Numbered from the stretch's first letter, positions 8,229 to 32,000 are shown. The stretch: DNA of 32,000 bases from Parcubacteria group bacterium GW2011_GWA2_38_13b (GCA_000992445.2 LBUF02000001.1:94393-126392); one strand, 5' to 3'. The notes: generated by a model from the sequence alone, not told the origin. Program-made: numbers and translations.

Positions 8229-8980
8229 TTCCTCCTCCAAAACTTTGCCAATCCCAACCATTCTTTAAACAATATCTTCAATGTTTCTTTTCTTGCTAAT
8301 GCCAATTGTCGGCCAAGCGGGATTTCTTTGGGACAAAAATTATCGCATGCTTCAATGGCATGGCAGCCCCACAGGCCGTCATCGGAAGATAAAATATTAA
8401 TTAATTTTTGACGGGCTCCCAAATCTTCGTTTCGCGGATCCTGTAAAAATCTGTGTGCCGTAATACAACCGCTCGCGCCGATGAATTTTCCGAAACTTGC
8501 CGCGGCGCAAGCGGAAACGCAAATTCCGCACTTAACGCACCGTTCGTTTTCGTAAAGAGCATCGGCCAATTCCGGAACCATCAAATCTTCTTTTTCCGGA
8601 TTAAATTCTTTTTGGCGATGAACCCACGCTTCCATTTTTTGTTCAAGCCGGTTAAAAAATTCCGATTTATCCACCGCCAAATCTTTAACAATGGGAAAAA
8701 AATCCAGCGGTTCCAAAACAATTTCATACGGCAAATCCGCTGTCTGCGTCTTACATGCCAATTTCGGCCGGCCATTTATTTTTATGGCGCAAATGCCGCA
8801 ATTGGCGCAACCGCACTGACCATCATAATAAATACTTGAATCCTGACCGGTTTGTATTTCATCCAAAAGCGCCAAAACGCTCATTCCTCTTTGTTCATCA
8901 ACAATGAAATCATTAAAATATTCTCTTCTTATTCGTCCGCTGATTCGCTTTATTTTCACAATTAATTTTCTATCGTTCAT
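8225..8980 (-). CDS. sdhB: Succinate dehydrogenase / fumarate reductase iron-sulfur subunit
   Basis: Three Cys clusters are present: CGCANCGICAIKINGRPKLAC (2Fe-2S), CVKCGICVSAC, and CHAIEACDNFCPKEI. There is an ATGA overlap with sdhA at 8977-8980. Confidence 0.85.
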   Translation of the reverse strand: MNDRKLIVKIKRISGRIRREYFNDFIVDEQRGMSVLALLDEIQTGQDSSIYYDGQCGCANCGICAIKINGRPKLACKTQTADLPYEIVLEPLDFFPIVKDLAVDKSEFFNRLEQKMEAWVHRQKEFNPEKEDLMVPELADALYENERCVKCGICVSACAAASFGKFIGASGCITAHRFLQDPRNEDLGARQKLINILSSDDGLWGCHAIEACDNFCPKEIPLGRQLALARKETLKILFKEWLGLAKFWRRK

Positions 8981-10719: not shown

Positions 10720-10739
10720 TATTTATTTCCTCCATCGCG

Positions 10740-11387
10740 TTACGCCCAAAAAAGCAAAAAGAGGTTTAAAATCCCGAAGAACAAAACATTCGCGCCGATT
10801 GCGATTAAAATAAAATTTACAATCCCGCGCTTTCTTAATAAAATACCATATTTTATTAGAATGCTTCTGATCCCGCATAAAGAATGGATAAACGCAAAAA
10901 TTAACAAAGCGATTAATGATCCGAAATAAAAACCATCCTGCAAATGCTTCGCGGCCATTGCCGCCGTAGTGACATTATGTCCCCAATAAGCGATGTACAA
11001 ATGAATAATCCCTAACGCAAAGATACAAACTCCCGACAAAAAATGAACATACCACAGCCATGAACCGCGATAATTCATATCTGCCAAATATTTATACACT
11101 TTTAGCGTTTTTAAAAAATAACCCCAAATGATTTTGAAACCGTTTGCGGCATGCGCCAAAAATATTCCAAAAATCAGAAACACGGCGGCTTTGATAAAAA
11201 AATTATTCTTATCAAGATGCGCCGTGTACCAATTAAACCACCTTGAACCACCCCAAACAGTTGATACGCCTAAAAAATGGACAAATAAAAAACTCGTAAG
11301 AAATAAACCCGTAATTGTCTGCAAAAAATATAAAACCGTTTGCCAACGCACTTTCCCGCTCAAAATCAAATATCCTTCCTTTTTCAT
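10740..11387 (-). CDS. sdhC: Succinate dehydrogenase / fumarate reductase membrane anchor, single five-TM cytochrome b type
   Basis: 215 aa with about five hydrophobic helices and conserved-looking His residues (FLAHAANG, YVHFLSG, IHLYIAYWGH, FIHSLCG). It is the first gene of the operon and has an AAGGAGG SD. Confidence 0.65.
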   Translation of the reverse strand: MKKEGYLILSGKVRWQTVLYFLQTITGLFLTSFLFVHFLGVSTVWGGSRWFNWYTAHLDKNNFFIKAAVFLIFGIFLAHAANGFKIIWGYFLKTLKVYKYLADMNYRGSWLWYVHFLSGVCIFALGIIHLYIAYWGHNVTTAAMAAKHLQDGFYFGSLIALLIFAFIHSLCGIRSILIKYGILLRKRGIVNFILIAIGANVLFFGILNLFLLFWA

Positions 11388-11437
11388 AACAATCCTCCTT
11401 ACTTTTTAATTTAATTGTCAAGTAACCTGTCTAATCA

Positions 11438-11465
11438 ATATTAATCTTCAAGCAGCAAAAGTCAA
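11438..11465 (-). promoter_or_regulatory. Promoter of the sdhCAB-fumAB operon
   Basis: On the minus strand: TTGACT (rc of 11460-11465), 16-nt spacer, TAATAT (rc of 11438-11443). Confidence 0.45.
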
Positions 11466-11529
11466 CTGTAAATTTGCAAATAAAAAAATACAAAGTGACG
11501 AGAATATTAACAAATATCAAAATTAAAGT

Positions 11530-11555
11530 CCCGCCCCGCAGTACTGCGGGGCGGG
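11530..11555 (-). terminator. GC-rich perfect-palindrome terminator after the regulator gene
   Basis: CCCGCCCCGCAGTACTGCGGGGCGGG is a perfect 26-nt palindrome. On the minus strand it is followed by the T-rich ACTTTAATTTTGAT. Confidence 0.7.
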
Positions 11556-11591
11556 GCACGCGTTTCTTAACAAATATTCTTTTAATAAATA

Positions 11592-12299
11592 CTAATCTCT
11601 TTCTCTTGAAATGGCGAGAATATTGATAATTTTCCCTTCCTCGTCTCTCATGGGCGAAAGAGATAAACTGCACTGATCCCGAGTTGACAAGCTTTTGACA
11701 TGCCTGATGTTAATGGTAACGGATTTCCCTTGAAGGCATTTTCCAAGCAATTTCAAGACATATTCTCTTTGCTCTTCAATAATGGAAGACAACCAATCCC
11801 ATCCAATCGCTTCTTTTTCCGTTTTAAATCCATGCTCTTCCATCCCGCCTTTGTTCAAATAAACGAGGCGTCCGTTAGTATCCAAAATTTTAACGCAATC
11901 AGGCGAAGAATCAAGAATAGCCCTGATGCCTTTCTTGTCTTTATAAAACTCTCTTTGCGTTTTTGCTTTATAAACCGCCCTATGAATTGACCGCAACCAC
12001 GGTAATGCCCTTTTTAACAACTGGACATTTCTTTCGGCGACATACAAAAGATTGACGGGATCTCCGGTGGAATAATATTTGCCTCTTTTCTTTTTTCGCG
12101 CCGTCACTAATTTTCTTTCAACCAAATATTCAACAACATTATAAACCGTTGTTCTTGGAAGACCTGTTTTTCGCGCGATATCAGTGACAGTCGCTTCGCC
12201 TAATTCCAAAACGGCGAACCATGTTTTGGCTTCATTGGCTTCTTTGCCCGTAAGCCCAAGTTTCATTAAAAAATTAAAAATAACGCTATTTATGCTCAT
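11592..12299 (-). CDS. TrmB-family winged-HTH transcriptional regulator fused to a PAS sensor domain
   Basis: The N-terminus has ELGEATVTDIARKTGLPRTTVYNVVEYLVERKLV (TrmB/MarR-like HTH). The C-terminal 110 aa are PAS-like (ILDSSPDCVKILDTNGRLVYLNKGGMEEHGF...). It is transcribed divergently from the hydrogenase operon. Confidence 0.75.
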   Translation of the reverse strand: MSINSVIFNFLMKLGLTGKEANEAKTWFAVLELGEATVTDIARKTGLPRTTVYNVVEYLVERKLVTARKKKRGKYYSTGDPVNLLYVAERNVQLLKRALPWLRSIHRAVYKAKTQREFYKDKKGIRAILDSSPDCVKILDTNGRLVYLNKGGMEEHGFKTEKEAIGWDWLSSIIEEQREYVLKLLGKCLQGKSVTINIRHVKSLSTRDQCSLSLSPMRDEEGKIINILAISRERD

Positions 12300-12448
12300 A
12301 ATATTAATTTACTGCTTTATTTTCGCATTAATTTTCGGTAGTTTTACCTATTTTAATGCAAAAAATTCGGCAGATTAAATAACTAATTACTTTACTATAA
12401 TATACTCCTTTTAACGAAAGTTGTCAATAAAATTTTAGTGGTAGAAAT

Positions 12449-12473
12449 AATGACGAAAAAATGGACATTTTTA
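12449..12473 (+). repeat. 25-nt box, copy A (AATGACGAAAAAATGGACATTTTTA)
   Basis: It matches copy B at 23 of 25 positions and lies exactly 90 bp upstream of it. Confidence 0.7.
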
Positions 12474-12538
12474 ACTTTAATTTAATGCACCGAAACACTA
12501 CTTTTATCTTAAACTGGACTTGTTTCACAAAAAATCAA

Positions 12539-12563
12539 AATGACGAAAAAGTTGACATTTTTA
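12539..12563 (+). repeat. 25-nt box, copy B (AATGACGAAAAAGTTGACATTTTTA), overlapping the -35 of the hydrogenase promoter
   Basis: See copy A. It contains the TTGACA at 12552-12557. Confidence 0.7.
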
Positions 12564-12579
12564 TAAAAAAGCCTACAAT
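12552..12579 (+). promoter_or_regulatory. Near-consensus promoter of the [NiFe] hydrogenase operon
   Basis: TTGACA (12552-12557), 16-nt spacer, TACAAT (12574-12579). It lies about 68 nt upstream of the ATG at 12647, which has a GGAGGAGG SD. Confidence 0.6.
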
Positions 12580-12646
12580 TACAACGATAAACTGTTATTT
12601 GAAAATTTAATTCTAGTTTAAATTTCAATGGGAGGAGGAAAAAAAT

Positions 12647-13678
12647 ATGCGTTTTGTATCCGTAAATAAGGAAAAGTTTTTTGAATTGGTAAATCTCCTC
12701 ATAAAACAGAAGAAAGAAAGAATTGTCGGGGTTGTCAAAAAAGACGACGATTATATTTTTAACGATTTGGAAAATGCCGTTGAATTATGTTTAGATTACG
12801 GCAAGCCAACGCTGCTCCCTCCGGGGAAAAAATACTTACTCCCCCGCAAAGAAACATTACTTAAATTTCAAAATGCATCAAGCGAAATCGTGAACGAAGC
12901 AAAACCGATAACGCTTATCGGCGTTCATCCTTACGACTTATGGGCAATAAAAGTTATGAACGCGGTGTTTCTGTCGGAACCGATTGATCGAAACTATGCC
13001 GAAAAAAGAAAAAACATGTTCATTATCGGCGTAGATTATCTAAATCCTCATCCGAATTCATTCTGCGCCAGTATCGGAACTTATGAAATACACGACGGAT
13101 TTGATCTATTACTTACCGACATAGGCAAAAAATATATTATAACCATTGATTCCGAAAAGGGCGAAAAATTCATTGATAAATATATTGAATTCACGAAAGA
13201 AGCGACCGCGATTGACCTGCTTTTTCTTGACAATGCCGTTAATAAAGCGAAAGAAAAATATAAACTCGCAATGCCGTTAAAAAAAGAAGAATTACCAAAA
13301 TTCCTTGAAGACAAATACGATAATCCTCTTTGGACGGAACTCGCAAAAAAATGTTTTTCTTGCGGCAAATGCAATTTGGTCTGCCCGACCTGCGTCTGTT
13401 TCAATATTGAAGACAAGGCGGAATTGAATCTGCAAGAAGGCGTCCGTGAACGAGAATGGCACGGTTGCGCGTTGAAAGAATTTGCCGAAGTGGCCATGGG
13501 ACACAATTTCAGGGGAAAAATCGAACAACGCCTGCGCCACAGAATATACAGAAAACTATCTTATACGGTATCGCGATACGGCATCTATGGCTGTGTCGGC
13601 TGCGGACGATGCATTAATTCCTGCAAAGCGGGAATAGCCAGTCCCGTAGAAATTATAAAAAAATTGAATAAAGAATAG
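12647..13678 (+). CDS. hyhB: Group 3b-type [NiFe] hydrogenase beta subunit (AsrA-like 4Fe-4S protein)
   Basis: It has the ferredoxin-type Cys motifs CFSCGKCNLVCPTCVC and CVGCGRCINSC. It is the first gene in the beta-gamma-small-large order known from Pyrococcus sulfhydrogenase. Confidence 0.8.
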   Translation: MRFVSVNKEKFFELVNLLIKQKKERIVGVVKKDDDYIFNDLENAVELCLDYGKPTLLPPGKKYLLPRKETLLKFQNASSEIVNEAKPITLIGVHPYDLWAIKVMNAVFLSEPIDRNYAEKRKNMFIIGVDYLNPHPNSFCASIGTYEIHDGFDLLLTDIGKKYIITIDSEKGEKFIDKYIEFTKEATAIDLLFLDNAVNKAKEKYKLAMPLKKEELPKFLEDKYDNPLWTELAKKCFSCGKCNLVCPTCVCFNIEDKAELNLQEGVREREWHGCALKEFAEVAMGHNFRGKIEQRLRHRIYRKLSYTVSRYGIYGCVGCGRCINSCKAGIASPVEIIKKLNKE

Positions 13679-13687
13679 GGGGAAGGA

Positions 13688-14527
13688 ATGAATAACGAAA
13701 AAAACTATATGGAACCGGAACCGGCGAAAATACTTAAAATACTTTCTTTGGGAGAATATGAAAAACTTTTCCGGCTAGAATTAAAATCCGAAAAAAAATT
13801 AGGACATAAGCCGCTCCAATTCGTAAAAGTTTCAATACCGCTTATCGGCGAAGCGCCGATAAGCGTCTGTAATTGGCAAGAAGAATTTTTTGAAATAGCG
13901 GTTCGCAAGGTTGGCGATGTAACGAATAAAATTCACACTATGGAAACGGGGGAAACAATCGGAATAACAGGCCCGTTGGGAAATGGATTTCCGATTGACG
14001 AAATGCGCGGCAAAGATTTGCTTGTTATTGCCGGCGGAATAGGATTATTTCCGGCTCGTTCGCTAATACACTACTCTCTCGCCAATCACGATAACTTCGG
14101 CAGAATTATTATTCTTTTTGGAACAAAATCTTTTGATGAAAGATATTTCCCGGAAGAATTATTAAACTGGCAATACAGAGGCGATCTGGAATTACACCAA
14201 GCACTGGATAAAGGCGATGCGCGCTGGGGCGGACATATAGGACTTATTACTACGCTCATTCCGCCAGTTCAAATTAACGCTGAAAATACTTGCGCCGTGA
14301 TTGTAGGACCCCCAATTATGTACAGATTCGTCATACCCGAACTCCGCAAAAAAAATATTCCCGACACGCAAATTCTTATGTCTTTTGAAAGACGAATGGA
14401 ATGCGGCGCGGGAAAATGCGGCCGTTGCCAAATTAACGGTCCGAAAACAACTTGGTATACTTGTAAAGATGGCCCGGTTATCAGTTATGCCGATGTACTG
14501 CGGCTTAAACTAAAGGAGGCGATTTAA
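13688..14527 (+). CDS. hyhG: Group 3b-type [NiFe] hydrogenase gamma subunit (FAD/NAD(P)-binding, 2Fe-2S; AsrB/PyrK-like)
   Basis: It has a flavoprotein-reductase fold (LLVIAGGIGLFP) and the C-terminal cluster motif CGAGKCGRCQ. A GGGGGAAGG SD is present. Confidence 0.8.
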   Translation: MNNEKNYMEPEPAKILKILSLGEYEKLFRLELKSEKKLGHKPLQFVKVSIPLIGEAPISVCNWQEEFFEIAVRKVGDVTNKIHTMETGETIGITGPLGNGFPIDEMRGKDLLVIAGGIGLFPARSLIHYSLANHDNFGRIIILFGTKSFDERYFPEELLNWQYRGDLELHQALDKGDARWGGHIGLITTLIPPVQINAENTCAVIVGPPIMYRFVIPELRKKNIPDTQILMSFERRMECGAGKCGRCQINGPKTTWYTCKDGPVISYADVLRLKLKEAI

Positions 14528-14528
14528 T

Positions 14529-15299
14529 ATGGCAAAACCGAAAGTGGCGATATTCAGTATGGCCTGCTGCGCCGGATGCGCCCTGCAAATCGTAAATCTT
14601 GAAGAAAAAATTCTTGACTTGGTTGGAGCCATTGATGTGGTGGAATGGCAGGAAGGATTAAGCGAAAAATCCGGCGGCAATTACGATATTGCCATTATTG
14701 AAGGCAGTATCGTTACGGAAAAAGAAGCCGAAGAATTGCGAAAAATCCGCCAAACGGCAAAAATTGTAATCGCTATCGGCGCTTGCGCCCATACGGGAGG
14801 AATAAACTGCTTGGGCAACCATATGAGCGTTGAAGAAAAAAAATCAATAGTTTACGACGGCGATGCCGGAAAAATAGACGGTTTAAAAGACGCGATTCAG
14901 CCACGACCGCTTAACGCAATAATAAAGGTTGATGCCGTTGTGCCGGGTTGCCCGATAAACAAAAATGAATTGGTTGAAGCGGTAAAATGCCTGCTACTGG
15001 GGAAAAAATTCCGTCTGCCGGATTATCCGGTTTGTTTTGAATGCGCGCTCAAAGAAAACGGCTGTTTATTTGATTTGGACATTATTTGCCTGGGACCGAT
15101 AACCCGCGCCGGCTGTGAAGCGGCTTGTCCATCAATAAATAAAGAATGCAATGGTTGCCGAGGATGGGTTGACGACCCGAATCAAAACGCGGCAAAAGAT
15201 ATTCTGGAAAAATACGGATTAAGCATTGAAGACATCAAAAAAAGATTTGAAATATTCAATGCTTACAAAACCGAGATAATGGAGAAAAAAAATGCATAA
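14529..15299 (+). CDS. hyhS: [NiFe] hydrogenase small (delta) subunit, group 3 type
   Basis: The N-terminus is FSMACCAGC, followed by IGACAHTGG, VPGCP and a C-terminal Cys-rich cluster. An AAGGAGG SD is present. Confidence 0.82.
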   Translation: MAKPKVAIFSMACCAGCALQIVNLEEKILDLVGAIDVVEWQEGLSEKSGGNYDIAIIEGSIVTEKEAEELRKIRQTAKIVIAIGACAHTGGINCLGNHMSVEEKKSIVYDGDAGKIDGLKDAIQPRPLNAIIKVDAVVPGCPINKNELVEAVKCLLLGKKFRLPDYPVCFECALKENGCLFDLDIICLGPITRAGCEAACPSINKECNGCRGWVDDPNQNAAKDILEKYGLSIEDIKKRFEIFNAYKTEIMEKKNA

Positions 15300-16629
15300 T
15301 AATAAAAATATGGAAATTCATGTGGAAAATGTGACCCGCGTAGAAGGCCACGGAATCATTGATGTTGAAATAAAAAACGGCGAGGTGACGAAATGCCTTT
15401 GGAAAATACCGGAAACGGCAAGATTTTTTGAAGCGATGGTGAGGGGAAGACGCTACGATGAAATTGCCGGCATTACTTCCCGCGTTTGCGGCATTTGTTC
15501 CATAGGACACCATACGGCAAGCCAAAAAGCGACGGAGAACGCTTTTGGCATAACGATTTCTCCGCAAACGGAAAAATTCCGAAAATTATTAATGCACGCG
15601 GAAAATTTCCAGAGCCACATCCTCCATACTCTTTATTTGGTGCTTCCCGATCTTTTGGGGATGAAAAGCGTCGTGGAAGTGGCGATGGCTTGTCCCGAAG
15701 AAGCGAAAATCGTTACGCGCCTTCACGGATTAGGCAATGAAATGTCCGCCTTAATAGGAGGACGCGCAACTCATCCTATTACATCAATCATTGGCGGTTT
15801 CACAAAATTGCCGAGCGAAAAAGAGTTGGCGGATATGCGAAAAAAATTGCTTAACTCCCTGAATGATTATTTCGCAATCGTTGAACTGCTGGGGAAAATA
15901 GCCGAAAAAATTCCCGTATTCACAAGAGAAACGGAATACATCTCTTTAAAAAACAATACGGATTATGCCATTTTAAACGGCAATCTGTATTCAAGCGATA
16001 ACGAATTTTATAATAATGCGGATTACCGAAACGTAATGAACGAATTCTGCGTGCCGCATTCCACTGCAAAATTCACGAAAAATCTGCGCGCTTCATTTAT
16101 GGTCGGAGCTTTAGCAAGATTTAACAACAATTACGCTATGATTCGCCCGCTGGCTCGAAGCATCGCGGAAAAACTCGGGCTAAAAGCACCGTGCCATAAT
16201 CCATTTATGAATAGCGTTGCCCAAGTGATTGAAACCGCGCATTCCATTGAAGACAGTATTGTTCTTATTCAAGAAATATTGGAAGAAGGAATAAAAAAAG
16301 AATGCCTAAGAGACATTTACGGCAAAGCCGATGCGGTAATCAAAGCGGGAGAAGGGATAGGTATGGTTGAAGTGCCGAGAGGATTACTTATTCATAATTA
16401 TAAATATGACGAAAAAGGCAAGGTCATTGAAGCAAACTGCGTAATTCCAACAAATATGAACCACTGGAACATCCAGCACGATTTGGAAAAACTGGTTCCG
16501 GAATTACTGGCGCAAGAAAAAACCAAAGAAGAAATCCAGCTCGCCTGCGAAATGAATGTCCGGGCTTATGACCCATGCATTTCCTGTTCCGTCCATGAAA
16601 TGCGATTAGTAAATATGGATTGGAAATAA
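15292..16629 (+). CDS. hyhL: [NiFe] hydrogenase large (alpha) catalytic subunit, group 3b type
   Basis: It has the N-terminal Ni-binding RVCGICS and the C-terminal DPCISCSVH; its size is about 445 aa. ATG 15310 is an alternative start. Confidence 0.9.
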   Translation: MHNNKNMEIHVENVTRVEGHGIIDVEIKNGEVTKCLWKIPETARFFEAMVRGRRYDEIAGITSRVCGICSIGHHTASQKATENAFGITISPQTEKFRKLLMHAENFQSHILHTLYLVLPDLLGMKSVVEVAMACPEEAKIVTRLHGLGNEMSALIGGRATHPITSIIGGFTKLPSEKELADMRKKLLNSLNDYFAIVELLGKIAEKIPVFTRETEYISLKNNTDYAILNGNLYSSDNEFYNNADYRNVMNEFCVPHSTAKFTKNLRASFMVGALARFNNNYAMIRPLARSIAEKLGLKAPCHNPFMNSVAQVIETAHSIEDSIVLIQEILEEGIKKECLRDIYGKADAVIKAGEGIGMVEVPRGLLIHNYKYDEKGKVIEANCVIPTNMNHWNIQHDLEKLVPELLAQEKTKEEIQLACEMNVRAYDPCISCSVHEMRLVNMDWK

Positions 16630-16631
16630 AA

Positions 16632-17099
16632 ATGAAAAAAATATTAATTTTGGGCATCGGTAATCCGCTTTTCAGCGATGAAGGAATTGGACCGTATATC
16701 GTTGAAGAATTAAAAAAATACTCGTTGCCAACCAATGTTAATGTAATTAACGGCGGAACCGGCGGCTTTGAGCTGATTCATTGCCTTCAAAAGCATGACA
16801 ACATAATAGTAATAGACGCGGTAGATATGAATATGACACCGGGAACGATTAAAAAATTGAAATTAAGCGATGTTTCAGGGAAAACGCATACTTGCCATTC
16901 ATTACATCAAACAAGTTTTACGGAAATAGTAGAACTGGCAAACGCACTTGGCAGTTATCCGAAAATTGTTATTTTCGGCGTCCAACCGAAAAATACGAAA
17001 GATTTAGGCGAATTAACGCCGGAAGTGAAAAATATGGTACCGACACTACTTGTTTGGCTGATAAAAGAAATTAAAAAAATCACTTACGAAAAAACATAA
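16632..17099 (+). CDS. Hydrogenase maturation endopeptidase (HycI/HoxW family)
   Basis: It has ILILGIGNPLFSDEGIG and IVIDAVD motifs. I prefer ATG 16632 (2 nt after the large-subunit stop) over the TTG at 16620. Confidence 0.85.
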   Translation: MKKILILGIGNPLFSDEGIGPYIVEELKKYSLPTNVNVINGGTGGFELIHCLQKHDNIIVIDAVDMNMTPGTIKKLKLSDVSGKTHTCHSLHQTSFTEIVELANALGSYPKIVIFGVQPKNTKDLGELTPEVKNMVPTLLVWLIKEIKKITYEKT

Positions 17100-20483: not shown

Positions 20484-20557
20484 TGGTGGACCTGGGGGGA
20501 ATTGGACCCCCGTCCCCGCAATGCGAATGCGATGCACTACCACTATGCTACAGGCCC
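20484..20557 (-). tRNA. tRNA-Ala (anticodon CGC), CCA encoded
   Basis: The reverse complement is GGGCCTGTAGCATAGTGGTAGTGCATCGCATTCGCATTGCGGGGACGGGGGTCCAATTCCCCCCAGGTCCACCA. It folds as a cloverleaf with a 7-bp acceptor stem carrying the G3:U70 alanine identity pair. The anticodon loop is TTCGCAT and the T-stem is 5 bp GGGGG/CCCCC. Confidence 0.9.
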
Positions 20558-24900: not shown

Positions 24901-27330
24901 ATGGATAATGAAAAAATAGAAAAAAGAGAAATCAAAGAAGAAATGCGGGAATCCTATCTTAATTACGCGATGAGCGTAATTGTGGATAGAGCGTTGCCCG
25001 ATGTAAGAGATGGATTAAAGCCCGTGCACAGGCGTATTTTGATTACGCTAAAAGACCTCGGACTCCATCCCAATTCCCGTTTTCGAAAAAGCGCGAAAAT
25101 TTGCGGCGATGTTTCAGGAAATTATCATCCGCATGGCGAACAAATCGTCTATCCTTCAATGGTCCATTTGGCTCAAATATTCAAAATGCGCTATCCATTG
25201 GTTTTTAGTCAAGGAAACTTCGGTTCCATTGACGGCGATCCACCGGCCGCTATGCGTTATACTGAAGCGAAAATGAGCAAATTCGCGCAAGAAATACTCC
25301 ACGACCTGGACAAAGATACCGTTGACTGGAAATCAAATTACGACGGCACCAGAAAAGAACCGCAAGTTCTCCCCGCCCTCCTGCCCAATCTGATCATTAA
25401 TGGAACGATGGGCATAGCGGTTGGAATGGCTACCAATATACCGCCGCACAATCTTGGAGAAATTATTGACGGGTTGATTTATCTCATAGACAACCCCAAG
25501 GCATCAATCGAAAATCTTGTGGAATTTATAAAGGGTCCTGATTTCCCGACAGGAGGAATTATTTATAACAAAAATGATATTATTCAAGCGTACGGAACAG
25601 GAAAAGGAGGAATTATTAACCGCGCAAGAGCCGAAATCGTGGAAGATAAAAACAAACGCTTTCAAATCATTACGACGGAAATCCCCTATCAAGTCAATAA
25701 ATCATCTTTAATAGAAAAAATCGCGCAATTAGTCAAAGACAAAAAAATAGAAGGTATTAAAGACGTAAGAGATGAATCGGATAAAGACGGCATCAGGATA
25801 GTCATTGATTTGAAAAACGATGTTTACCCGCAGAAAATTCTTAACCGACTCTACAAACTGACCGATATGCAGCGTGTTTTCCATTTAAATATGCTGGCGT
25901 TGGTTGATGGAATACAACCCCAAGTCTTATCTTTAAAGAGCATTTTGGAATATTACATTGAGCATAGAAAGATTGTGGTGGAACGCCGCACTCGTTTCGA
26001 TCTTGCAAAAGCCAAAGAGAGAGCTCACATTCTTGAAGGACTGAAAAAAGCCCTTGACCACATTGACGCCGTCATCACGACGATCAGACAATCAAAAGAC
26101 AAAGAAACCGCTCATACGAATTTGATGAAAAAATTCGGCTTTTCCGATACTCAAACAAAAGCGATTTTAGAAATGAAATTACAAACGTTGGCCGGACTGG
26201 AGAGAGAAAAAATCGAAGACGAATTAAAAGAAAAGAAAAAATTGATCGGCGAATTGACCGCGATCCTGGAAACACCTAAACGAATACTGCAAGTGATAAA
26301 AGACGAGCTTAAAAAACTGAGAGAAGATCATGCGGACGAAAGAAGGACAAAGGTTGTCGCTTCGGGCGTCGCTGAATTTAAAGTGGAAGATTTAATACCG
26401 AACGAAGAAGCGATATTGGTTTTAACCAGAAGCGGTTATATAAAACGGGTTAATCCGAATATTTATCGGACACAAAAAAGGGGCGGCAAAGGGATGATCG
26501 GAATGATGACAAAAGAAGAAGATCAGGTCGAAAGTATGCTGGGAGTTGAAACGCATGACGACATCCTATTTTTTACCGATTCCGGAAAAGTTTTCAAAGT
26601 AAAAGCTTATGAAATACCCGAATCATCGCGGGTCAGCAAAGGACAAGCAATTATGAATTTCCTGCAAATCAACAATAAGGAGCACGTAACCAGCATAATT
26701 TCTCTGGGCAAAGAAGACAAAGAAAATAAATTTTTAGTGATGGCAACGAAATATGGTATAATTAAAAAAACAAACATCAGCGAATTCGCCAATGTGCGGC
26801 GCGTTGGTCTTGTCGCCATAAAACTGCAAAAAGAAGATTCGCTCAAATGGGTTAATATAACGCAAGGAAACGATGAAGTCATTTTGGTTACGAGCAAAGG
26901 ACAAGCCATACGTTTTTCCGAAAAAGACGTAAGATCAATGGGGCGAGGAGCTTCCGGAGTACGCGGCATCCGGTTGAAAAAAGATGATTATATGGTCGGT
27001 ATGGACATAATAAAAAAAGACAGGCCGGTTGATCTTTTAATCGTAACGGAAAACGGCTTTGGAAAAAAAACGCCGGTTAAATACTATAAAAACCAAAAAC
27101 GCGGAGGATCGGGAATAAAAACCGCCAAAATAACCTCGAAAAACGGCGGCATTATAGCGGCGACGACCATTGCGGCCGGCGAAGCGTCGGATATCGTTAC
27201 CATATCTTCGCAAGGAAAAGTTATCCGTACGCCGCTTGACAGCATATCGGTATTGGGACGATCAACGCAAGGAGTAAGAATTATGCGCTTGGATCAAAAC
27301 GACAAAGCCGTATCAATAACTTGCTTATAA
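24901..27330 (+). CDS. gyrA: DNA gyrase subunit A
   Basis: 809 aa. It has [30 protein letters not shown], the active-site region [10 protein letters not shown], and a C-terminal beta-pinwheel with repeated G.G...i.l motifs. Confidence 0.95.
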
Positions 27331-27344
27331 AAAAATTTTGTAAA

Positions 27345-27875
27345 ATGAACTTTATACATCCCGAAAAAATCATCCCCTTACTCCAAATTTCGGAAGGTAT
27401 GAAAATCGCCGATCTGGGATGCGGAGCGGGATTTTTTACCATTCTTCTGGCAAAAGCCGTTGGTGAAAACGGAGAAATATTCGCGGCGGATGTCCAAAAA
27501 AGTTCTCTGGAAAGCGTTAAAATCAAAGCACAGGCGGAAAAAATTTCCAATATTAAAACTATCTGGGCCGATCTTGAAATTTACGGAACCACAAAAATAG
27601 CCGACGATTCCCTGGATATGGTTTTGATTTCCGATGTTTTATTTCAATCGAAAAAAAAAGGCGCAATCATAAAAGAAGCATGGCGAATCGTATCGCCAAA
27701 CGGCAAACTGGCTATTATTGACTGGAAACCGGAATCATTGGAAATTGGCCCCAAAAACAGTTATCGTTTGGCAAAAAACGATATGATAAAAATAGCCGAA
27801 GAGACGGGATTTAAATTAACCAGCGAATTTGACGCGAGTGATTATCATTACGGATTATTTTTCAGCAAGGAGTAA
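27345..27875 (+). CDS. Class I SAM-dependent methyltransferase (small, about 176 aa)
   Basis: It has motif I IADLGCGAGFFT. I prefer ATG 27345 over the TTG at 27321, which overlaps the gyrA end. Confidence 0.75.
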   Translation: MNFIHPEKIIPLLQISEGMKIADLGCGAGFFTILLAKAVGENGEIFAADVQKSSLESVKIKAQAEKISNIKTIWADLEIYGTTKIADDSLDMVLISDVLFQSKKKGAIIKEAWRIVSPNGKLAIIDWKPESLEIGPKNSYRLAKNDMIKIAEETGFKLTSEFDASDYHYGLFFSKE

Positions 27876-27919: not shown

Positions 27920-29251
27920 GTGACTACTTCATTTATAAATAGTTTATCTATGTCCACAACCGCTCAACGAATGATATTTTTAACAATAATTTTTATAATT
28001 ATTGCAATTACTATTTTTGCCGTTATATTCGGTCTTAAAAAACCGAAACAGACGCAAAAAATCAATTTGGAATTTTGGAGCGTTTACGATCAAGACGAAT
28101 ATTTTATCAATATCATAAAAGAATACAAACGTTTGTATCCGTCAGTAACCATAACTTATGTTAAAAAAACATTTAATGATTACGAGAAAGATTTAATTGA
28201 CGCTTTTGCCGCCGGTCGCGGACCGGATATTTGGAGCATCCATAATACATGGCTTCCGAAACACAAAAATAAAATAATTCCATTATCGCCGGAAATGATG
28301 ACAATCCAATCTTTCAAGGATACTTTTGTCGATGTAACATTTCAAGATTTGGTAAACAATAACCAAATCTATGGCTTACCTCTTTTTGTAGACACGCTGG
28401 CTTTATACTGGAATAAAAATATTTTTCAATCCAATGGCATAGCGGAACCCCCTCAAACTTGGGACGACTTCGTAAAAGACGCAAAGCTTCTGACCAAAAA
28501 AGATGATTTTGGGAATATCATTAGAGTCGGCGCATCTCTTGGTACGGCAAAAAACATAAATCGTTCAACCGACATTCTCGGCCTTTTAATGTTGCAAACC
28601 GGCACCCAAATGACCGACCTCGAAAATACTAAAGTCATATTCAACAAATTCGTTTCCTTAAACGGCCAACCATTCGCCGCGGGCGAAGAAGCACTGAGAT
28701 TTTATACCGATTTCGCCAATCCCCAAAAAGAAGTTTATACATGGAATTCGGAAATGGACTATTCCATAGACGCTTTTTACCAAGGGGAAACCGCTATGAT
28801 GATAAATTACTCCCACCACATTGACACTATTAAAAACAAAGCGCCTTATCTTAATTTCGGCGTTGCGACCATCCCGCAAATCGCCGGCAGCGGAAACAAT
28901 ATCGCTTATGCCAACTATTGGGCGCCTGCTGTTTTTATAAACTCTAAAAATCCCGGCTGGGCCTGGCATTTTATCCAATTTATGACATTAAAAGATAATG
29001 CGCTGAAATACTTGGAATCGTCAAAAAGACCGACGGCCAGAAGGGATTTGGTTGATTTACAAAAAGACAAACTGCATCTTGGCGTTTTCGCGCGGCAATC
29101 GCTCACCGCTAAATCATGGTATCAAATTGACAATGTCACAATCGAAACAATATTCTCCGATATGATTGAAACGGTTGTTCTTGGTCAAGCCACAATCAAA
29201 CAAGCGATAGAAAAATCGGCAAACCAGATAAATGTGCTGTATCGAAAATAA
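27920..29251 (+). CDS. Extracellular solute-binding protein (ABC-type, family 1, sugar-like), TM-anchored, with no cognate permease or ATPase nearby
   Basis: 443 aa with an N-terminal TM (IFLTIIFIIIAITIFAVIFGL) and no lipobox Cys. The SBP_bac_1-like body has GPDIWSIHNTWLP, IYGLPLFVDTLALYWNK and PQTWDDF. ATG 27950 is an alternative start. Confidence 0.75.
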   Translation: MTTSFINSLSMSTTAQRMIFLTIIFIIIAITIFAVIFGLKKPKQTQKINLEFWSVYDQDEYFINIIKEYKRLYPSVTITYVKKTFNDYEKDLIDAFAAGRGPDIWSIHNTWLPKHKNKIIPLSPEMMTIQSFKDTFVDVTFQDLVNNNQIYGLPLFVDTLALYWNKNIFQSNGIAEPPQTWDDFVKDAKLLTKKDDFGNIIRVGASLGTAKNINRSTDILGLLMLQTGTQMTDLENTKVIFNKFVSLNGQPFAAGEEALRFYTDFANPQKEVYTWNSEMDYSIDAFYQGETAMMINYSHHIDTIKNKAPYLNFGVATIPQIAGSGNNIAYANYWAPAVFINSKNPGWAWHFIQFMTLKDNALKYLESSKRPTARRDLVDLQKDKLHLGVFARQSLTAKSWYQIDNVTIETIFSDMIETVVLGQATIKQAIEKSANQINVLYRK

Positions 29252-29320: not shown

Positions 29321-29731
29321 ATGGCATCAATTTATAAACCTACATTATTATTTATTACGGTATTATCTATTTTTTTGCCGTTAATGTCTAATGCCGCCGG
29401 TCTCGTTCCCTGCGGCGGCGAAGGAGAAGCGGATTGCACAACTTGCGATTTTTTCGTTATGACAAAAGGCGCCATCGATTTTATAATAATAGACTTAGTC
29501 ACTCCGCTAGCAGCCTTATTTGTGGTAACAGCCGGAATTATTTTGTTTACTTCCGGCGGCAGCGACAATCAGATTTCTTTGGCGAAGAGAATGTTATATG
29601 GCGTGATAATAGGCGCGCTGATTATTTACGGAGCATGGCTAATCGTAGATTCAATCTTGCTTATGCTAACCGGCTCCGGCGCCGACCAACCGGCAGGATT
29701 TCCTTGGCCTTGGCATACGATTAAATGTTAA
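29321..29731 (+). CDS. VirB2/TrbC-like (T4SS-pilin-type) small membrane protein, paralog 1, LVPCGG..C..C head
   Basis: 136 aa. It has the signal LPLMSNA, then AGLVPCGGEGEADCTTCDFF, helix 1, the loop ILFTSGGSDNQISLAKR, and helix 2 VIIGALIIYGAWLIV. Confidence 0.6.
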   Translation: MASIYKPTLLFITVLSIFLPLMSNAAGLVPCGGEGEADCTTCDFFVMTKGAIDFIIIDLVTPLAALFVVTAGIILFTSGGSDNQISLAKRMLYGVIIGALIIYGAWLIVDSILLMLTGSGADQPAGFPWPWHTIKC

Positions 29732-29750
29732 TCATTTTTTATGCTACTTT

Positions 29751-30482
29751 ATGGATTTATGGTATAATTATCTTATGTATGGTAAATATTTGAAAAAAAT
29801 ATTGTTGCGGTTCAGCATCCTATTTTTTATACTGTTTTTCGCGGTAAATGCGTTTTTTACCGCACCTGTTCAAGCGGTTAAAATTAACGGCAAATGCGGC
29901 CCTGCCAACGGAAACACATATGCTAATTATTCTGCCTTCGAAGATGCTGGAACGTGCAACCCCGGAATTTTTCAATTACTTAATGTTGAATTTGGCAGCA
30001 CCAAAGATAAATGGCTATGGAGTTGCGTCGGCGAAGAAGACGGTGCGTCAGTTACCGACTGTTACGCTTTTATCGAAAAATCTGAAGAAACCGGTTATTG
30101 TGGAGATGGTATCGTTGATCTTGCGGAAGAATGCGACGACGGCAATACGAATAACAACGATAGTTGCTCCAATAACTGCAAAATAAATGATGATGATAAA
30201 ATCGGAACGAGTACAAAAATAATTGAATATGATAATCCGCTAAAAACAGACAGTATCATAGATATCGTGAAAAGAATCGCCGACTATTTTTATTATGTAG
30301 CTATCGCGATTGTTCCGATTATAATGATTTACGCCGCTGTTTTATTATTAACGGCTGGCGGCAATGATCAGCAAGTAACAAAAGCGAAAAAAACATTTAT
30401 TTGGCTGGTAATCGGCATCGCGATTTTGTTAATCGGCAGTGGCGTAATAACGCTTCTAAAAGATATATTGAATACTGGATAA
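29751..30482 (+). CDS. VirB2/TrbC-like pilin-type protein, paralog 2, with Cys-rich head domains
   Basis: 243 aa. After the signal peptide come the CGPANG...LWSCVGEEDGASVTDC module and CGDGIVDLAEECDDGNTNNNDSCSNNC (a Myxococcus-type cysteine-rich repeat pattern). The pilin core is LLLTAGGNDQQVTKAKKTFIWLVIGIAILLIGSG. Start may be ATG 29775. Confidence 0.6.
   Translation: MDLWYNYLMYGKYLKKILLRFSILFFILFFAVNAFFTAPVQAVKINGKCGPANGNTYANYSAFEDAGTCNPGIFQLLNVEFGSTKDKWLWSCVGEEDGASVTDCYAFIEKSEETGYCGDGIVDLAEECDDGNTNNNDSCSNNCKINDDDKIGTSTKIIEYDNPLKTDSIIDIVKRIADYFYYVAIAIVPIIMIYAAVLLLTAGGNDQQVTKAKKTFIWLVIGIAILLIGSGVITLLKDILNTG
29760..29768 (+). promoter_or_regulatory. Possible extended -10 promoter (TGGTATAAT) for paralog 2
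   Basis: TGnTATAAT lies at 29760-29768, 6 nt before ATG 29775. I saw no clear -35. Confidence 0.25.
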
Positions 30483-30531
30483 AACGAATATTTTTTAACC
30501 ATTATACAATATGTGATAGTAGCATACAAAA

Positions 30532-30987
30532 ATGACAAAACAAAAATTGAACAAAAAAATTTCGCAATTCGGCATCTTATTTTTTATATTATTTTTCGCG
30601 ACGAGCGCATTTTTCGTCGCATATGCTTATGGCGATTCCGGCACCAGCACAAACAATACATCCCCTGAATACATTGATTTAACCCTGGATAAGATAGTAA
30701 GTATTTTAGAAAGATTTTCCAGATATTTTTATTCTATAGCAATCGTGCTAGCCGTAATTTTAACGGTTTATATCGGCATAACATTCCTGACGGCCGGCGG
30801 CGATGATTCACAAATAACAAAAGTAAAAAAAATGTTGATTTGGTTGGTACTCGGCGTAGCGATTTTATTGATCGGCCGCGGAATAATAACGTTTGTGAGG
30901 GATATACTGGAAACGGGGGATGAAGAAAGCGCGCTTGATGCAATTAATTTATTTGTACGAATCTTAAATGAAGGAAAATATTTTTAA
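30532..30987 (+). CDS. VirB2/TrbC-like pilin-type protein, paralog 3
   Basis: 151 aa. Its signal peptide and core are close to paralog 2 (GILFFILFFATSAFF; TFLTAGGDDSQITKVKKMLIWLVLGVAILLIGRG), but the head is short and Cys-free. Confidence 0.6.
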   Translation: MTKQKLNKKISQFGILFFILFFATSAFFVAYAYGDSGTSTNNTSPEYIDLTLDKIVSILERFSRYFYSIAIVLAVILTVYIGITFLTAGGDDSQITKVKKMLIWLVLGVAILLIGRGIITFVRDILETGDEESALDAINLFVRILNEGKYF

Positions 30988-31444
30988 TAAAATTTTTGTC
31001 ATATTTATCGTTTTTGCGGTTTTGGGTTTTGCATTTTTCCCCTATTTTTCAGTTTTTGCCGATTCATTGGAATTAGAAAATCTTCCTGGCATTGGTTTCG
31101 TATTCGGCGATATGTATTGCATATTTTTAAAAATAATGACGTGGTTGTTCAGTTTCGCGCTTATATTGGCGGTAACTTCTTTGGTTATAAACGGTCTTCG
31201 CTATATATTTTCTTCCGGAGATCCGCAAGTGCTTTTATCAGTACATAAAAATTTGAGTTGGATTGCGATAGGAATTGTCATAATTTTGCTTTCCACGTCG
31301 ATTTTAATAATGATAGCGATGTTTTTGGGCGTATTTACAGCGGCTTTTGAAACGCTTATACTGCCAATCTATATGGTAAAATGCGAAATAGTATGGTGGG
31401 CCGGGTTAATCGGAAAATTATTTTCAATTATAAAAGGTATTTAA
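30968..31444 (+). CDS. VirB2/TrbC-like pilin-type protein, paralog 4 (divergent loop)
   Basis: 158 aa with YCIFLKIMTWLFSFALILAV, the loop YIFSSGDPQVLLSVHKN, and helix WIAIGIVIILLS. It overlaps paralog 3 by 20 nt. Confidence 0.5.
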   Translation: MKENIFNKIFVIFIVFAVLGFAFFPYFSVFADSLELENLPGIGFVFGDMYCIFLKIMTWLFSFALILAVTSLVINGLRYIFSSGDPQVLLSVHKNLSWIAIGIVIILLSTSILIMIAMFLGVFTAAFETLILPIYMVKCEIVWWAGLIGKLFSIIKGI

Positions 31445-31469
31445 TGCTAATTCCAATTAGTTAATCACG

Positions 31470-31868
31470 ATGTTCATATTTAATTTTTTCATCAAATCTG
31501 CCGAAGCGGTAAGCGGAGTGGGCGCGCTGGGAATGGTTCCCACCATCGGCGTTCTCTATTGTCTTTTCCTAAAAGCGCTTTATTGGTTTTTTTCTTTTTC
31601 TTTAATAATAGCGATCGTCTATGCGATTTCAGTGGGAATCAGCATACTAACCTCTGGAGGCAATGCTGATACAAAAAAAACATCGTTAAATAAATTATAT
31701 TTTGTTGCGATTGGCGTAATGGTTATTCTCGCGGCAAGAATAATAGTTGAACGAGTTATACCGAAATTTTTAGGATTGGGCGAGCTAAATATTGAATCGG
31801 GAAGTCTTTCGTCCGGCATACTTGATTGGCTTTTTGGCATAAATCTTTGCGAATTATTAGGAGTTTAA
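31470..31868 (+). CDS. VirB2/TrbC-like pilin-type protein, paralog 5
   Basis: 132 aa with YCLFLKALYWFFSFSLIIAI, the loop SILTSGGNADTKKTSLNK, and helix YFVAIGVMVILAARIIV. Confidence 0.55.
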   Translation: MFIFNFFIKSAEAVSGVGALGMVPTIGVLYCLFLKALYWFFSFSLIIAIVYAISVGISILTSGGNADTKKTSLNKLYFVAIGVMVILAARIIVERVIPKFLGLGELNIESGSLSSGILDWLFGINLCELLGV

Positions 31869-31884
31869 AGGTCGCTTAACCAAG

Positions 31885-31930
31885 TCCCCACGCCTTTCCG
31901 TAAAAAAATGTTTACGAAAAGGCGTGGGGA
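31885..31930 (+). terminator. Long hairpin after the pilin-like array (possible terminator or processing site)
   Basis: TCCCCACGCCTTTCCGTAAA (31885-31904) pairs with TTTACGAAAAGGCGTGGGGA (31911-31930). That is 20 bp with one mismatch and a 6-nt loop. No strong T-run follows. Confidence 0.4.
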
Positions 31931-32000
31931 TAAATAAAAGCAAAAATCAAATAAAAGTATCGTTAAACAACTTGCTTTTATATCATTTTTCTTTTATAAT

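Follow-up and report, generated by a model that had tools for sequence, protein, structure and literature searches.

The genome of Parcubacteria group bacterium GW2011_GWA2_38_13b (Ca. Parcunitrobacter nitroensis; GTDB class Paceibacteria, CPR/Patescibacteria) carries a tandem array of six pilin-like genes, P1 to P6, immediately behind the gene of a membrane-anchored sugar-binding protein (SBP) (Table 1). The array lies at the end of the 32,000-nucleotide stretch analysed here (the window; LBUF02000001.1:94393–126392), and flanking sequence was supplied by a Rifle groundwater contig, k127_837767, which matches the window with 100% identity over 10,531 nt. The gyrA, SDH/FRD and type 3b hydrogenase genes carried by the scaffold agree with Castelle 2017. 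In NCBI, the proteins of the array region are entered as OWK27427–OWK27431.

Table 1. Features of the SBP–pilin locus, in window coordinates.
Feature	Position	Strand	Description
SBP, MalE/CUT1-type, membrane-anchored	27920..29251	+	443 aa from GTG start
P1, pilin-like	29321..29731	+	136 aa; LVPCGG..C..C head, last residue Cys
P2, pilin-like	29751..30482	+	243 aa; 8-Cys head (about 110 aa long) preceding the hairpin
P3, pilin-like	30532..30987	+	151 aa; most canonical paralog
P4, pilin-like	30968..31444	+	158 aa; extra hydrophobic C-terminal tail; 20-nt overlap with P3
P5, pilin-like	31470..31868	+	132 aa; short leader, C-terminal tail
Stem-loop in P5–P6 spacer	31884..31931	+	RNA fold
P6, pilin-like	starts at window-equivalent 32007 (7 nt beyond window end)		111 aa

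The five plus-strand reading frames described in the first-pass annotation all exist as real genes, and the count of paralogs rises from five to six with P6, which lies just past the window end. Successive genes from P1 to P5 are separated by 19, 49, −20 and 25 nt, and the spacing across the whole six-gene set ranges from −20 to 138 nt. An alternative start at 29775 would give P2 a 235-aa form, P1 is present in the NCBI annotation only as a 90-aa version, and the SBP is called elsewhere as 433 or 426 aa.

Each protein starts with a hydrophobic segment whose C-terminal end is a small-x-A site (SNA↓A, VQA↓V, AYA↓Y, VFA↓D and AEA↓V in the five window proteins), at which the leaders are predicted to be cleaved; in P5 and P6 this segment has only 13–15 residues and makes a weak, atypically short signal peptide. 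Each protein contains two hydrophobic helices, joined by a short (T/S)(A/S)GG(N/D)D loop that is followed by K/R residues, with 1–3 Lys/Arg per loop. The loop sequences and the YC[IL]FLK..W.FSF motif had been read correctly at first pass, and the leader and two-helix hairpin with a basic loop proposed there are borne out by the hydropathy segments, the alignment and an AlphaFold2 model of mature P3. This model, based on a 122-sequence alignment (mean pLDDT 84), comprises a helix at residues 18–53, a loop at 54–57, a second helix at 58–93 and a third helix at 97–113; the model of full-length P3 is of low confidence (pLDDT 58). At least 90% of 122 relatives keep the turn motif T/S-x-G-G and a Gly in helix 2, and the pattern LVPC..C..C with a C-terminal Cys, as found in P1, is seen again in 13 of 121 members of the family. 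A cleavable-looking leader, a two-helix hairpin and a short positively charged loop, the layout of VirB2/TraA-type pilins, are thus all present. Type IV pilin (PilA or pseudopilin) identity was rejected, as no class III leader (G↓F/M-x-x-x-E) occurs in the first 45 residues of any of the six. Sequence and profile searches of solved structures in the PDB, using the paralog core and the 122-sequence family alignment, returned designed or unrelated helical proteins only, and Foldseek searches of the PDB with both P3 models gave no significant match, simple helical hairpins being poorly discriminated by this approach.

The paralogs have diverged strongly from one another. BLASTP comparisons give E-values of 1e-28 (P2–P3), 1e-14 (P4–P5), 3e-12 (P3–P4) and 5e-8 (P1–P3); P5 and P6 share 41% identity (E = 4e-22), P2 and P3 share 51% over the hairpin, and the mean core identity among the six is 27% (range 16.5–52%). 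Of the three subtypes distinguished at first pass, P1 on its own and the P2/P3 pair stand, and the P4/P5 group was incomplete because P6 joins it (P4/P5/P6). In one GTDB genome found with a P2/P3 subfamily query (L011), all six genes are present as one-to-one orthologs in the same order, with 55–82% identity and dN/dS values of 0.07–0.26, and the six pilin genes are under purifying selection. P1 is 78% identical to its L011 ortholog (dN/dS 0.09) and P5 70% (dN/dS 0.18), and P1 and P6 are conserved as strongly in this comparison as the flanking housekeeping genes. Cys51 and Cys139 of P4 are kept in L011, where the ortholog of P2 has 134 aa and is devoid of the Cys-rich head.

The VirB2/TrbC-type pilin relationship claimed for the array is supported by profile comparison, in which PF18895 (T4SS_pilin) is the best Pfam match for all six proteins. 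The gathering cut-off of this family (26.6 bits) is passed by P2 (29.0 bits), P3 (29.4 bits) and P6 (35.9 bits), and not by P1 (20.7 bits), P4 (22.9 bits) or P5 (17.2 bits), for which it is still the top match; the L011 ortholog of P4 scores above it, at 28.5 bits. The other family suggested at first pass, PF04956 (TrbC/VirB2; cut-off 27.9 bits), has its cut-off passed by none: P3 scores best at 25.8 bits (E = 1.3e-5), the other paralogs give 13.8–19.3 bits or no match, and the L011 ortholog of P6 reaches 27.3 bits. Roughly one in three of the relatives retrieved has a precomputed PF04956 match, and on sequence grounds the six paralogs are related to PF04956 TrbC/VirB2 at the superfamily level.

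A profile made from 102 PF18895-annotated relatives matches all six proteins with E-values from 1e-12 to 4e-25 (P1 1e-19, P4 6e-14, P5 1e-12), the relatives themselves having been chosen by a profile that contains the six; P1 and P5 are tied to the family only through this custom profile and paralogy. The six-paralog profile retrieved 125 proteins, almost all of them already annotated as PF18895 and many also as PF04956, and, when run against the full library, 36,197 cluster representatives. Such profile searches were needed, as a word-indexed homolog search with P3 alone returned six proteins only. P2 additionally matches DUF4215 (29.3 bits) and the TIGR02232 cysteine-rich acidic repeat (37.2 bits), and the Pfam scan of the window ORFs also yielded weak matches to unrelated membrane families. 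PKD or Cys-rich heads are fused to some members of the family, and some relatives are single polypeptides in which 2–16 hairpin modules are joined and which look like polytopic membrane proteins; these multi-hairpin forms could not serve as pilus subunits without processing.

The SBP matches SBP_bac_8 (6e-27) and SBP_bac_1 (6e-25) in Pfam, and among solved structures its best matches are sugar- and maltose-binding proteins. ABC permease or ATPase genes are absent from its immediate neighbourhood here and in the related loci inspected. This conserved partner, directly upstream of the array, had been missed at first pass. Of 67 metagenomic loci that could be evaluated, 60 have 1–9 pilin genes behind the SBP ortholog, with a median gap of 7 nt, and in 80 SBP loci all 178 pilin-profile matches fall at that single position, compared with none among about 1,800 other ORFs. 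Even loci that share no other neighbour keep the pair. Conserved synteny of the gyrA block across the lineage was rejected as the whole explanation of the adjacency, because the pair persists where the upstream gyrA/MTase genes are swapped for SMC/ComM/NTP-transferase genes and because the downstream flanks are not conserved. The SBP–pilin gene order is therefore tight and conserved. No literature report of such an operon was found, and the word ‘solute’ has no occurrence in the accessible text of the survey of patescibacterial arrays by Quinonero-Coronel et al. 2025, from which the SBP link is likewise absent.

Partner genes had been expected just downstream of the window, but extension of the contig revealed no VirB4, VirB6, VirD4, VirB11 or relaxase gene in 38 kb upstream or 28.7 kb downstream (on a 94-kb contig, covered up to its last 24.7 kb), and over that span the array is not encoded together with a T4SS (VirB4 ATPase, VirB6/VirB3 platform). 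Likewise, VirB4, VirB6 and VirD4 were not found within ±8 kb in 80 related loci. In the accessible table of Quinonero-Coronel et al. 2025, VirB4 is scored ‘No’ for GW2011_GWA2_38_13b, a draft genome, which elsewhere encodes a PrgI/VirB3-like protein (OWK27196) and a TrsD-like protein (OWK27197); a second Paceibacteria genome with a VirB3 and TrsD pair is likewise scored VirB4-negative there. VirB4 of the Patescibacteria clade is recorded in 2,407 of 3,035 assemblies in the same source and, together with the VirB3-like and TrsD-like genes of this genome, makes a T4SS machine acting in trans likely.

The reading that we favour, with a probability of roughly 60%, is that the locus is a chromosomal operon for a membrane-tethered SBP and six pilin-like proteins of the VirB2/TrbC superfamily, which together would make a T4SS-type pilus with glycan capture. 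It builds on the PF18895 membership, the hairpin with its conserved turn and basic residues, the orthologs under purifying selection and the SBP–pilin order. That the proteins form a filament is inferred. By analogy with VirB2 and TraA, each pilin would be inserted through Sec and its leader cut at the small-x-A site, leaving a mature hairpin whose termini are extracellular and whose basic loop is cytoplasmic. The hairpins would then be pulled from the membrane by a VirB4-type machine whose genes lie elsewhere, and would polymerise into a pilus with the loops lining the lumen and the N- and C-terminal extensions on the surface. Each of the six paralogs would be a fixed subunit that the others could not replace, with a surface of its own: P1 would be stapled by cysteines, P2 would expose its Cys-rich head, and P4 and P5 their hydrophobic tails. 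The SBP, co-transcribed in this model, would recognise or capture glycans at the cell surface when a host or partner cell is contacted. To our knowledge, a pilus has been observed for no member of the PF18895 family. Against this reading count the lack of nearby VirB4, VirB6 and VirD4 genes, the VirB4-negative score in the survey and the scores of P1, P4 and P5 below the cut-off, as well as the lack of a match to solved VirB2 or TraA structures, the fused-hairpin relatives and the non-independence of the 102-relative profile.

Several of these observations also speak for a surface module that works independently of a T4SS, which we consider a serious contender but clearly the less probable one. 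The hairpins would stay in the cytoplasmic membrane, or would form a short envelope-spanning assembly alone or with another machine, and with the tethered SBP they would act as a scaffold, anchor or conduit that shows the head domains and captures glycans, in place of a VirB4-driven pilus. The retention of the SBP–pilin order despite changed upstream neighbours, the lack of a VirB4-like ORF in any of the 80 loci, the members with fused heads or serial hairpins and the two Paceibacteria genomes scored VirB4-negative in the accessible survey data are all consistent with this. The homology of the family to TrbC/VirB2 and the likely trans-acting machine argue against it, the VirB4-negative genome is a draft, and arrays in Saccharibacteria and Microgenomatia are located, according to the published portions at hand, within or next to T4SS clusters, with which they are jointly essential.

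An account in which the paralogs are interchangeable cassettes, expressed singly or recombined for host change or defence evasion, as proposed for Bartonella and Anaplasma, is improbable. It would fit the strong divergence (mean 27% identity), the presence of the P2 head here and not in L011, and the host-range versatility suggested in the accessible discussion of Quinonero-Coronel et al. 2025. The genes are, however, tightly packed or overlapping in the style of a single operon, and each is retained in L011 in the same order under purifying selection, an individual conservation indicative of fixed structural roles rather than variation. The suggestion that the proteins are not pilin relatives at all, being chance hydrophobic ORFs, PilA-type pilins or unrelated small membrane proteins matching by composition, could draw on the three of five window ORFs under the Pfam cut-off, the weak matches to unrelated membrane families and the searches of solved structures without matches, but it is effectively refuted by the conserved orthologs with dN/dS well below 1, the conserved turn and helix 2 Gly, the confinement of the pilin-profile matches to one position in the SBP loci and the lack of a class III leader (G↓FxxxE) in all six.

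The array belongs to an already published kind, the VirB2-like arrays of Patescibacteria, and its coupling to an SBP is the unexpected part. Five paralogs in a row had been called unusual, which holds against classical T4SS loci but not within Patescibacteria, where the accessible part of Quinonero-Coronel et al. 2025 records 441 divergent arrays of 2–11 genes with a mean identity of 25% and a maximum of 54%. These arrays are defined by at least two VirB2-like genes of low mutual identity that stand in tandem or have one gene between them in a Patescibacteria genome; the present locus has six, with closely similar values (mean 27%, maximum 52%). It shares with them the phylum, the PF18895/VirB2-like family, the tandem layout and the lack of a relaxase nearby, and differs in its Paceibacteria host and in its position behind a conserved SBP, published arrays being most abundant in Microgenomatia and Saccharimonadia. 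An array inside or near a virB4 cluster is reported for 1,135 of 1,948 assemblies in the same material, a placement not found here; since some other arrays in the published table, such as those in Falkowbacteria, are marked as lying away from VirB4, proximity to virB4 is common but not defining. Of the six, the accessible survey data flag P3 (OWK27428.1) alone as VirB2, so this array went uncounted, and because the thresholds miss most array members (one of six flagged), the published array counts are lower bounds.

In Nanosynbacter lyticus TM7x, a VirB2-like pilin array is also known, and Southlakia epibionticum has an essential series of predicted pilins, likewise of six genes. The Southlakia pilins lie inside a T4SS cluster (SEML1_0006–0019), whereas the 38 kb upstream and 29 kb downstream of the present array contain nothing T4SS-like. 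VirB2 of Agrobacterium, TrbC of RP4 and TraA of F resemble the present proteins in their leader, hydrophobic two-helix hairpin, short basic loop and small mature size. They differ in that the classical loci have one pilin gene in place of six paralogs; the present host is monoderm, some of its paralogs bear large extensions as N-terminal heads or C-terminal tails, and VirB4/VirB6 linkage is lacking. T-pilin and TrbC undergo head-to-tail cyclisation, and N-to-C disulfides might possibly stand in for it in the present proteins.

Similarity is also seen to the Mbov_0395/MMCAP2_0565 pilin-like conjugal transfer protein of Mycoplasma ICEs (NCBIfam NF045849), to which P2, P3 and P6 align over nearly the full length (model positions 6–79 of 80; E about 1e-6 to 5e-7) at 27–29 bits, below the 40-bit cut-off, so that they are not members. 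The Mycoplasma host is also a monoderm and its conjugation system is of the MPF-FATA class, to which the Patescibacteria VirB4 is assigned in the accessible part of Quinonero-Coronel et al. 2025; unlike the six-gene array, the Mycoplasma gene occurs singly, within a mobile element. Bartonella and Anaplasma phagocytophilum likewise have several divergent VirB2 copies in tandem, and there, according to the same part of that source, the paralogs are proposed to vary the exposed surface. Those bacteria are diderm pathogens of eukaryotes with a canonical VirB system, whereas the paralogs here are ancient, individually conserved and not rapidly varying.

Patescibacteria account for much of bacterial diversity and presumably live in attachment to other cells; in the only genetic study so far (Southlakia) the T4SS and the pilin series were essential for the attached lifestyle. 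The present locus provides a full six-pilin set in Paceibacteria, in the unusual respiring Ca. Parcunitrobacter, and its conserved, putatively translationally coupled SBP is a lead on what the pilus-like structure recognises or helps to take up. As a tentative extension, the SBP and pilin array may be a distinct, ancient and widespread Parcubacterial operon that is uncoupled from any T4SS cluster and builds a glycan-recognising or nutrient-scavenging filament or conduit, in the strongest form of this proposal without need of VirB4. If true, genes would for the first time tie a conjugative-type pilus to solute capture; solute capture by the T4SS of Patescibacteria has so far been speculation only.

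Scans for promoters (18, compared with 13.9 expected from shuffles) and terminators (3, compared with 3.8) across the sequence were not above shuffle expectation. The stem-loop in the P5–P6 spacer folds at −36.2 kcal/mol (z = −8.45), and none of 200 shuffles folded equally well. It is not a canonical intrinsic terminator, as no U-tract follows it, and it may be a terminator, an attenuator or an mRNA-stabilising hairpin that sets off P6. A hairpin is present in the same P5–P6 spacer of L011.

Five consecutive forward-strand genes, P1 to P5, whose positions, sizes and loop sequences all agree with the first-pass annotation, encode proteins with an N-terminal hydrophobic segment ending in a small-x-A site and two long hydrophobic segments around a short (T/S)(A/S)GG(N/D)D turn, with Lys/Arg after the turn. 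The hairpin with a basic loop behind a leader-like N terminus, as that annotation had read it, is borne out by these segments, by the alignment and by an AlphaFold2 model of mature P3 (122 sequences, pLDDT 84), in which helices of residues 18–53 and 58–93 are joined by a four-residue turn and followed by a third helix. At least 90% of relatives keep the T, G and G of the turn and one helix-2 Gly. The genes are packed as in an operon, with intergenic gaps of 19, 49, −20 and 25 nt. A public contig extending past the window, 100% identical over 10,531 nt, contains a sixth paralog, P6 (111 aa), which starts 138 nt past P5 and is 41% identical to it (E 4e-22). The closest other pairs are P2–P3 (51% identity, E 1e-28) and P4–P5 (33%, E 1e-14), with similarity also between P3 and P4 (E 3e-12) and between P1 and P3 (E 5e-8); over the 80-residue core, paralog identity averages 27.3% (range 16.5–51.9%). 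The proposed three subtypes stand, with P1 alone and P2 paired with P3, although the genes number six rather than five and the third subtype comprises P4, P5 and P6. Exact-sequence matches are OWK27427–OWK27431 (US76_04330 to US76_04350) of 'Parcubacteria group bacterium GW2011_GWA2_38_13b', every one annotated 'hypothetical protein', and the NCBI annotation of P1 is a 90-aa fragment (US76_04325). The P5–P6 spacer holds a stem-loop (−36.2 kcal/mol, z −8.45) without a U-tract, which may be a terminator, attenuator or mRNA stabiliser; a hairpin is also present in the same spacer of L011, a locus from a second genome with an orthologous array.

Features of the window and related loci, with scores of the six paralogs against PF18895 (T4SS_pilin; cut-off 26.6 bits)
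Feature	Position (window unless stated)	Strand	PF18895 (bits)	Against cut-off
VKOR homolog	2162-2590	-		
Fumarase, four-gene SDH/FRD, TrmB-PAS regulator, four-subunit type 3b NiFe hydrogenase and maturation protease	6829-17099			
tRNA-Ala (CGC)	20484-20557	-		
DUF11/CLIPPER-repeat protein, 501 aa	20678-22183	-		
UbiE/COQ5-like SAM methyltransferase	27321-27875			
Sugar-binding protein (SBP)	27920-29251	+		
P1	29321-29731	+	20.7	below
P2	29751-30482	+	29.0	passes
P3	30532-30987	+	29.4	passes
P4	30968-31444	+	22.9	below (P4 ortholog, 28.5)
P5	31470-31868	+	17.2	below
P5–P6 stem-loop	31884-31931			
P6	start at window-equivalent 32007 (extended contig)		35.9	passes
Multihaem cytochrome, just upstream of the window	L007:16461-17447			
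P0033, eight-module relative	L012:9925-12387			

PF18895 is the top Pfam match for each of the six paralogs, and P3 also scores 25.8 bits against PF04956 (TrbC/VirB2), just short of its cut-off of 27.9. A profile of the six cores retrieved 125 proteins in a word-indexed search, nearly all with precomputed PF18895 matches and about one-third also with PF04956, and 36,197 cluster representatives in an exhaustive search. An HMM built from 102 relatives, leaving out the source genome and close orthologs, matched every paralog, with E-values between 4e-25 and 1e-12 for a nominal database size of one million, the relatives having been picked by a profile containing the six. On these comparisons we conclude that the six proteins belong to the PF18895 family or lie close to it, with kinship to VirB2/TrbC at superfamily level, which supports the earlier pilin reading at family level. 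A type IV pilin identity was rejected, the paralogs having no class III leader, and searches of solved structures with the pilin-like proteins gave no informative match. P2, P3, P5 and P6 also have sub-threshold, near full-length matches (E ~1e-6) to NCBIfam NF045849, the Mbov_0395 pilin-like conjugal transfer protein of Mycoplasma ICEs, whose context is monoderm and MPF-FATA-type; this likeness may be relevant to the origin of Patescibacteria pilins, which published work leaves open.

Arrays of this kind are already known. A series of predicted pilins in the Southlakia T4SS cluster is essential for epibiotic growth (Wang et al.), and a survey that ran PF18895, PF04956 and CONJScan profiles over 3,035 genomes (Quinonero-Coronel et al. 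2025, PMC12102498) reports 441 arrays of 2–11 pilin genes, most abundant in Microgenomatia and Saccharimonadia, with a mean identity of 25% and a maximum of 54%, which the identities found here fit exactly. The first-pass view that five paralogs in a row are unusual holds against classical T4SS loci and is not supported for this phylum. The survey lists GCA_000992445.2 as 874,952 bp with 839 CDS, of GTDB class Paceibacteria, and its tables give this genome a single VirB2 (OWK27428.1, P3), three T4CP-like matches, one PrgI/VirB3-like gene, one TrsD-like gene and 'Presence of VirB4: No'. With only P3 of the six flagged as VirB2 (Table S3), the array was not counted in those tables, so array counts from standard thresholds are underestimates.

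The part meriting follow-up is the conserved operon that the pilins form with the gene directly upstream, encoding a MalE/CUT1-type sugar binder by sequence with an N-terminal membrane anchor (SBP) and no permease or ATPase gene adjacent to it. Three loci found through pilin matches (L015, L016 and L017, with 3, 2 and 6 pilins) share the window order S1 | MBL, small ORF, gyrA, (SAM methyltransferase), SBP, pilins, and their SBPs are 31–50% identical to that of the window. The SBP alone was used to fetch 80 metagenomic loci (39–60% identity). Of these, 67 extend 450 nt or more past the SBP, and in 60 of them a same-strand ORF matching the pilin profile starts within 1.2 kb; six of the other seven loci run for under 1.1 kb beyond that gene. 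The 178 pilin-profile ORFs of the set are all placed after the SBP, and none is found among the other ~1,800 ORFs. The first pilin starts a median of 7 nt after the SBP stop; the distance is at most 30 nt in 52 of 63 loci, and the two genes frequently overlap by 1 or 4 nt. Arrays hold 1–9 genes, and the median is 3 in loci whose available sequence exceeds 5 kb. Upstream, 33 of 44 loci have gyrA and then the methyltransferase ahead of the SBP; in the most divergent loci SMC, ComM and NTP-transferase take their place and the SBP–pilin adjacency is kept. The downstream flank is conserved in none of 23 loci. The SBP orthogroup has 2,602 matches at E ≤ 1e-10, its named members all Parcubacteria or Patescibacteria. 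A limited literature search found nothing linking the SBP to these pilins, which is absence of evidence only. In the window the methyltransferase gene overlaps the gyrA stop by 10 nt, and the two rearranged loci L093 and L094 instead have it directly after an SBP–pilin–RodZ-like run; synteny may not be the whole reason for its association with the module.

By analogy with the F- and T-pilus structures and the VirB2/TraA pilins, each protein would be inserted by Sec and lose its leader, giving a hairpin whose two termini are extracytoplasmic and whose basic loop is in the cytoplasm. Subunits would be extracted by a VirB4-family machine into a filament with loops toward the lumen and N- and C-terminal extensions outward, so placed that the heads and tails differing among P1–P6 would decorate its surface. 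Together with the filament or at its base, the membrane-anchored SBP would serve in host-glycan recognition or capture. Partner genes had been expected just downstream; the stretch of contig analysed, record positions 24,677–94,405 (the contig end), has no T4SS match in the 28.7 kb past P6 or the 38 kb upstream of P1. Every ORF with a family assignment in that span is housekeeping or metabolic, and the largest unassigned one (691 aa) lacks a Walker A motif. The main alternative, in which the pilin-like proteins and the SBP form an assembly in the membrane or envelope and need no T4SS, is rather unlikely in our estimate. It gains some weight because VirB4 is consistently absent nearby (no VirB4-like ORF in any of the 80 SBP loci), because of the survey's VirB4-negative call (PMC12102498) and because relatives carry many fused hairpin modules. 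Against it, the draft genome's VirB3-like and TrsD-like genes point to a T4SS encoded elsewhere; since TrsD is remotely related to the VirB4 N terminus (PMC12102498), a divergent or truncated VirB4 adjoining the TrsD-like gene is possible.

In L011 (GTDB genome 'Patescibacteria group bacterium H52-bin103_1') the order SBP, P1' to P6', FtsH, Band_7 is as here, with orthologs of P1–P6 at 78, 63, 55, 65, 70 and 82% identity and flanking genes at 82–92%. The six genes are under purifying selection (dN/dS 0.07–0.26, rough values because dS is near saturation). One-to-one retention of six distinct subunits argues for fixed, different roles and makes it improbable that the paralogs are interchangeable variation cassettes. 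The P2 head (residues ~45–150) is an 8-Cys domain of the DUF4215/TIGR02232 cysteine-rich acidic repeat type ahead of the hairpin; the 134-aa L011 ortholog lacks it, which makes the heads look like exchangeable modules added to an otherwise constant hairpin. A relative, P0030, has a shorter CG...W.W.C head. Cysteines C31/C39/C42 and C136 (the last residue) of P1, C51 and C139 of P4, and C31 and C127 of P5 are kept in L011 and sit on both predicted extracytoplasmic hairpin ends; 13 of 121 relatives have [LI]VPC..C..C near the N terminus and a Cys within two residues of the C terminus. This pattern suggests a putative N-to-C disulfide staple in P1, P4, P5 and like relatives, recalling the head-to-tail cyclisation of T-pilin and TrbC. 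The window also encodes a VKOR homolog (weak Pfam match), VKOR being a DsbB-like disulfide-forming enzyme, which would fit the export of Cys-rich proteins, P1 and P2 among them. The top pilin-core matches are single polypeptides with 2–16 complete tandem hairpin modules, among them P0033 (8 modules in 820 aa), P0034 (6 in 552 aa), P0047 (16 matched stretches in 1,775 aa) and P0052, so the family has been amplified by gene fusion besides gene duplication. Downstream of the 8-module gene, L012 encodes a 155-aa pilin, a pilin–PKD fusion and a PKD-repeat protein; the surrounding genes are housekeeping ones, with no VirB4 among them.

Elsewhere in the window are gyrA, the fumarase and SDH/FRD genes and those of the type 3b NiFe hydrogenase. 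Its genes match the curated scaffold_1 of Ca. Parcunitrobacter nitroensis, a Parcubacterium with unusual respiratory capacity; such respiratory genes, unusual for CPR, were already described for this genome by Castelle et al. (2017), who discuss type IV pili and not the array genes. The DUF11/CLIPPER-repeat protein adjoining tRNA-Ala is probably a surface protein.
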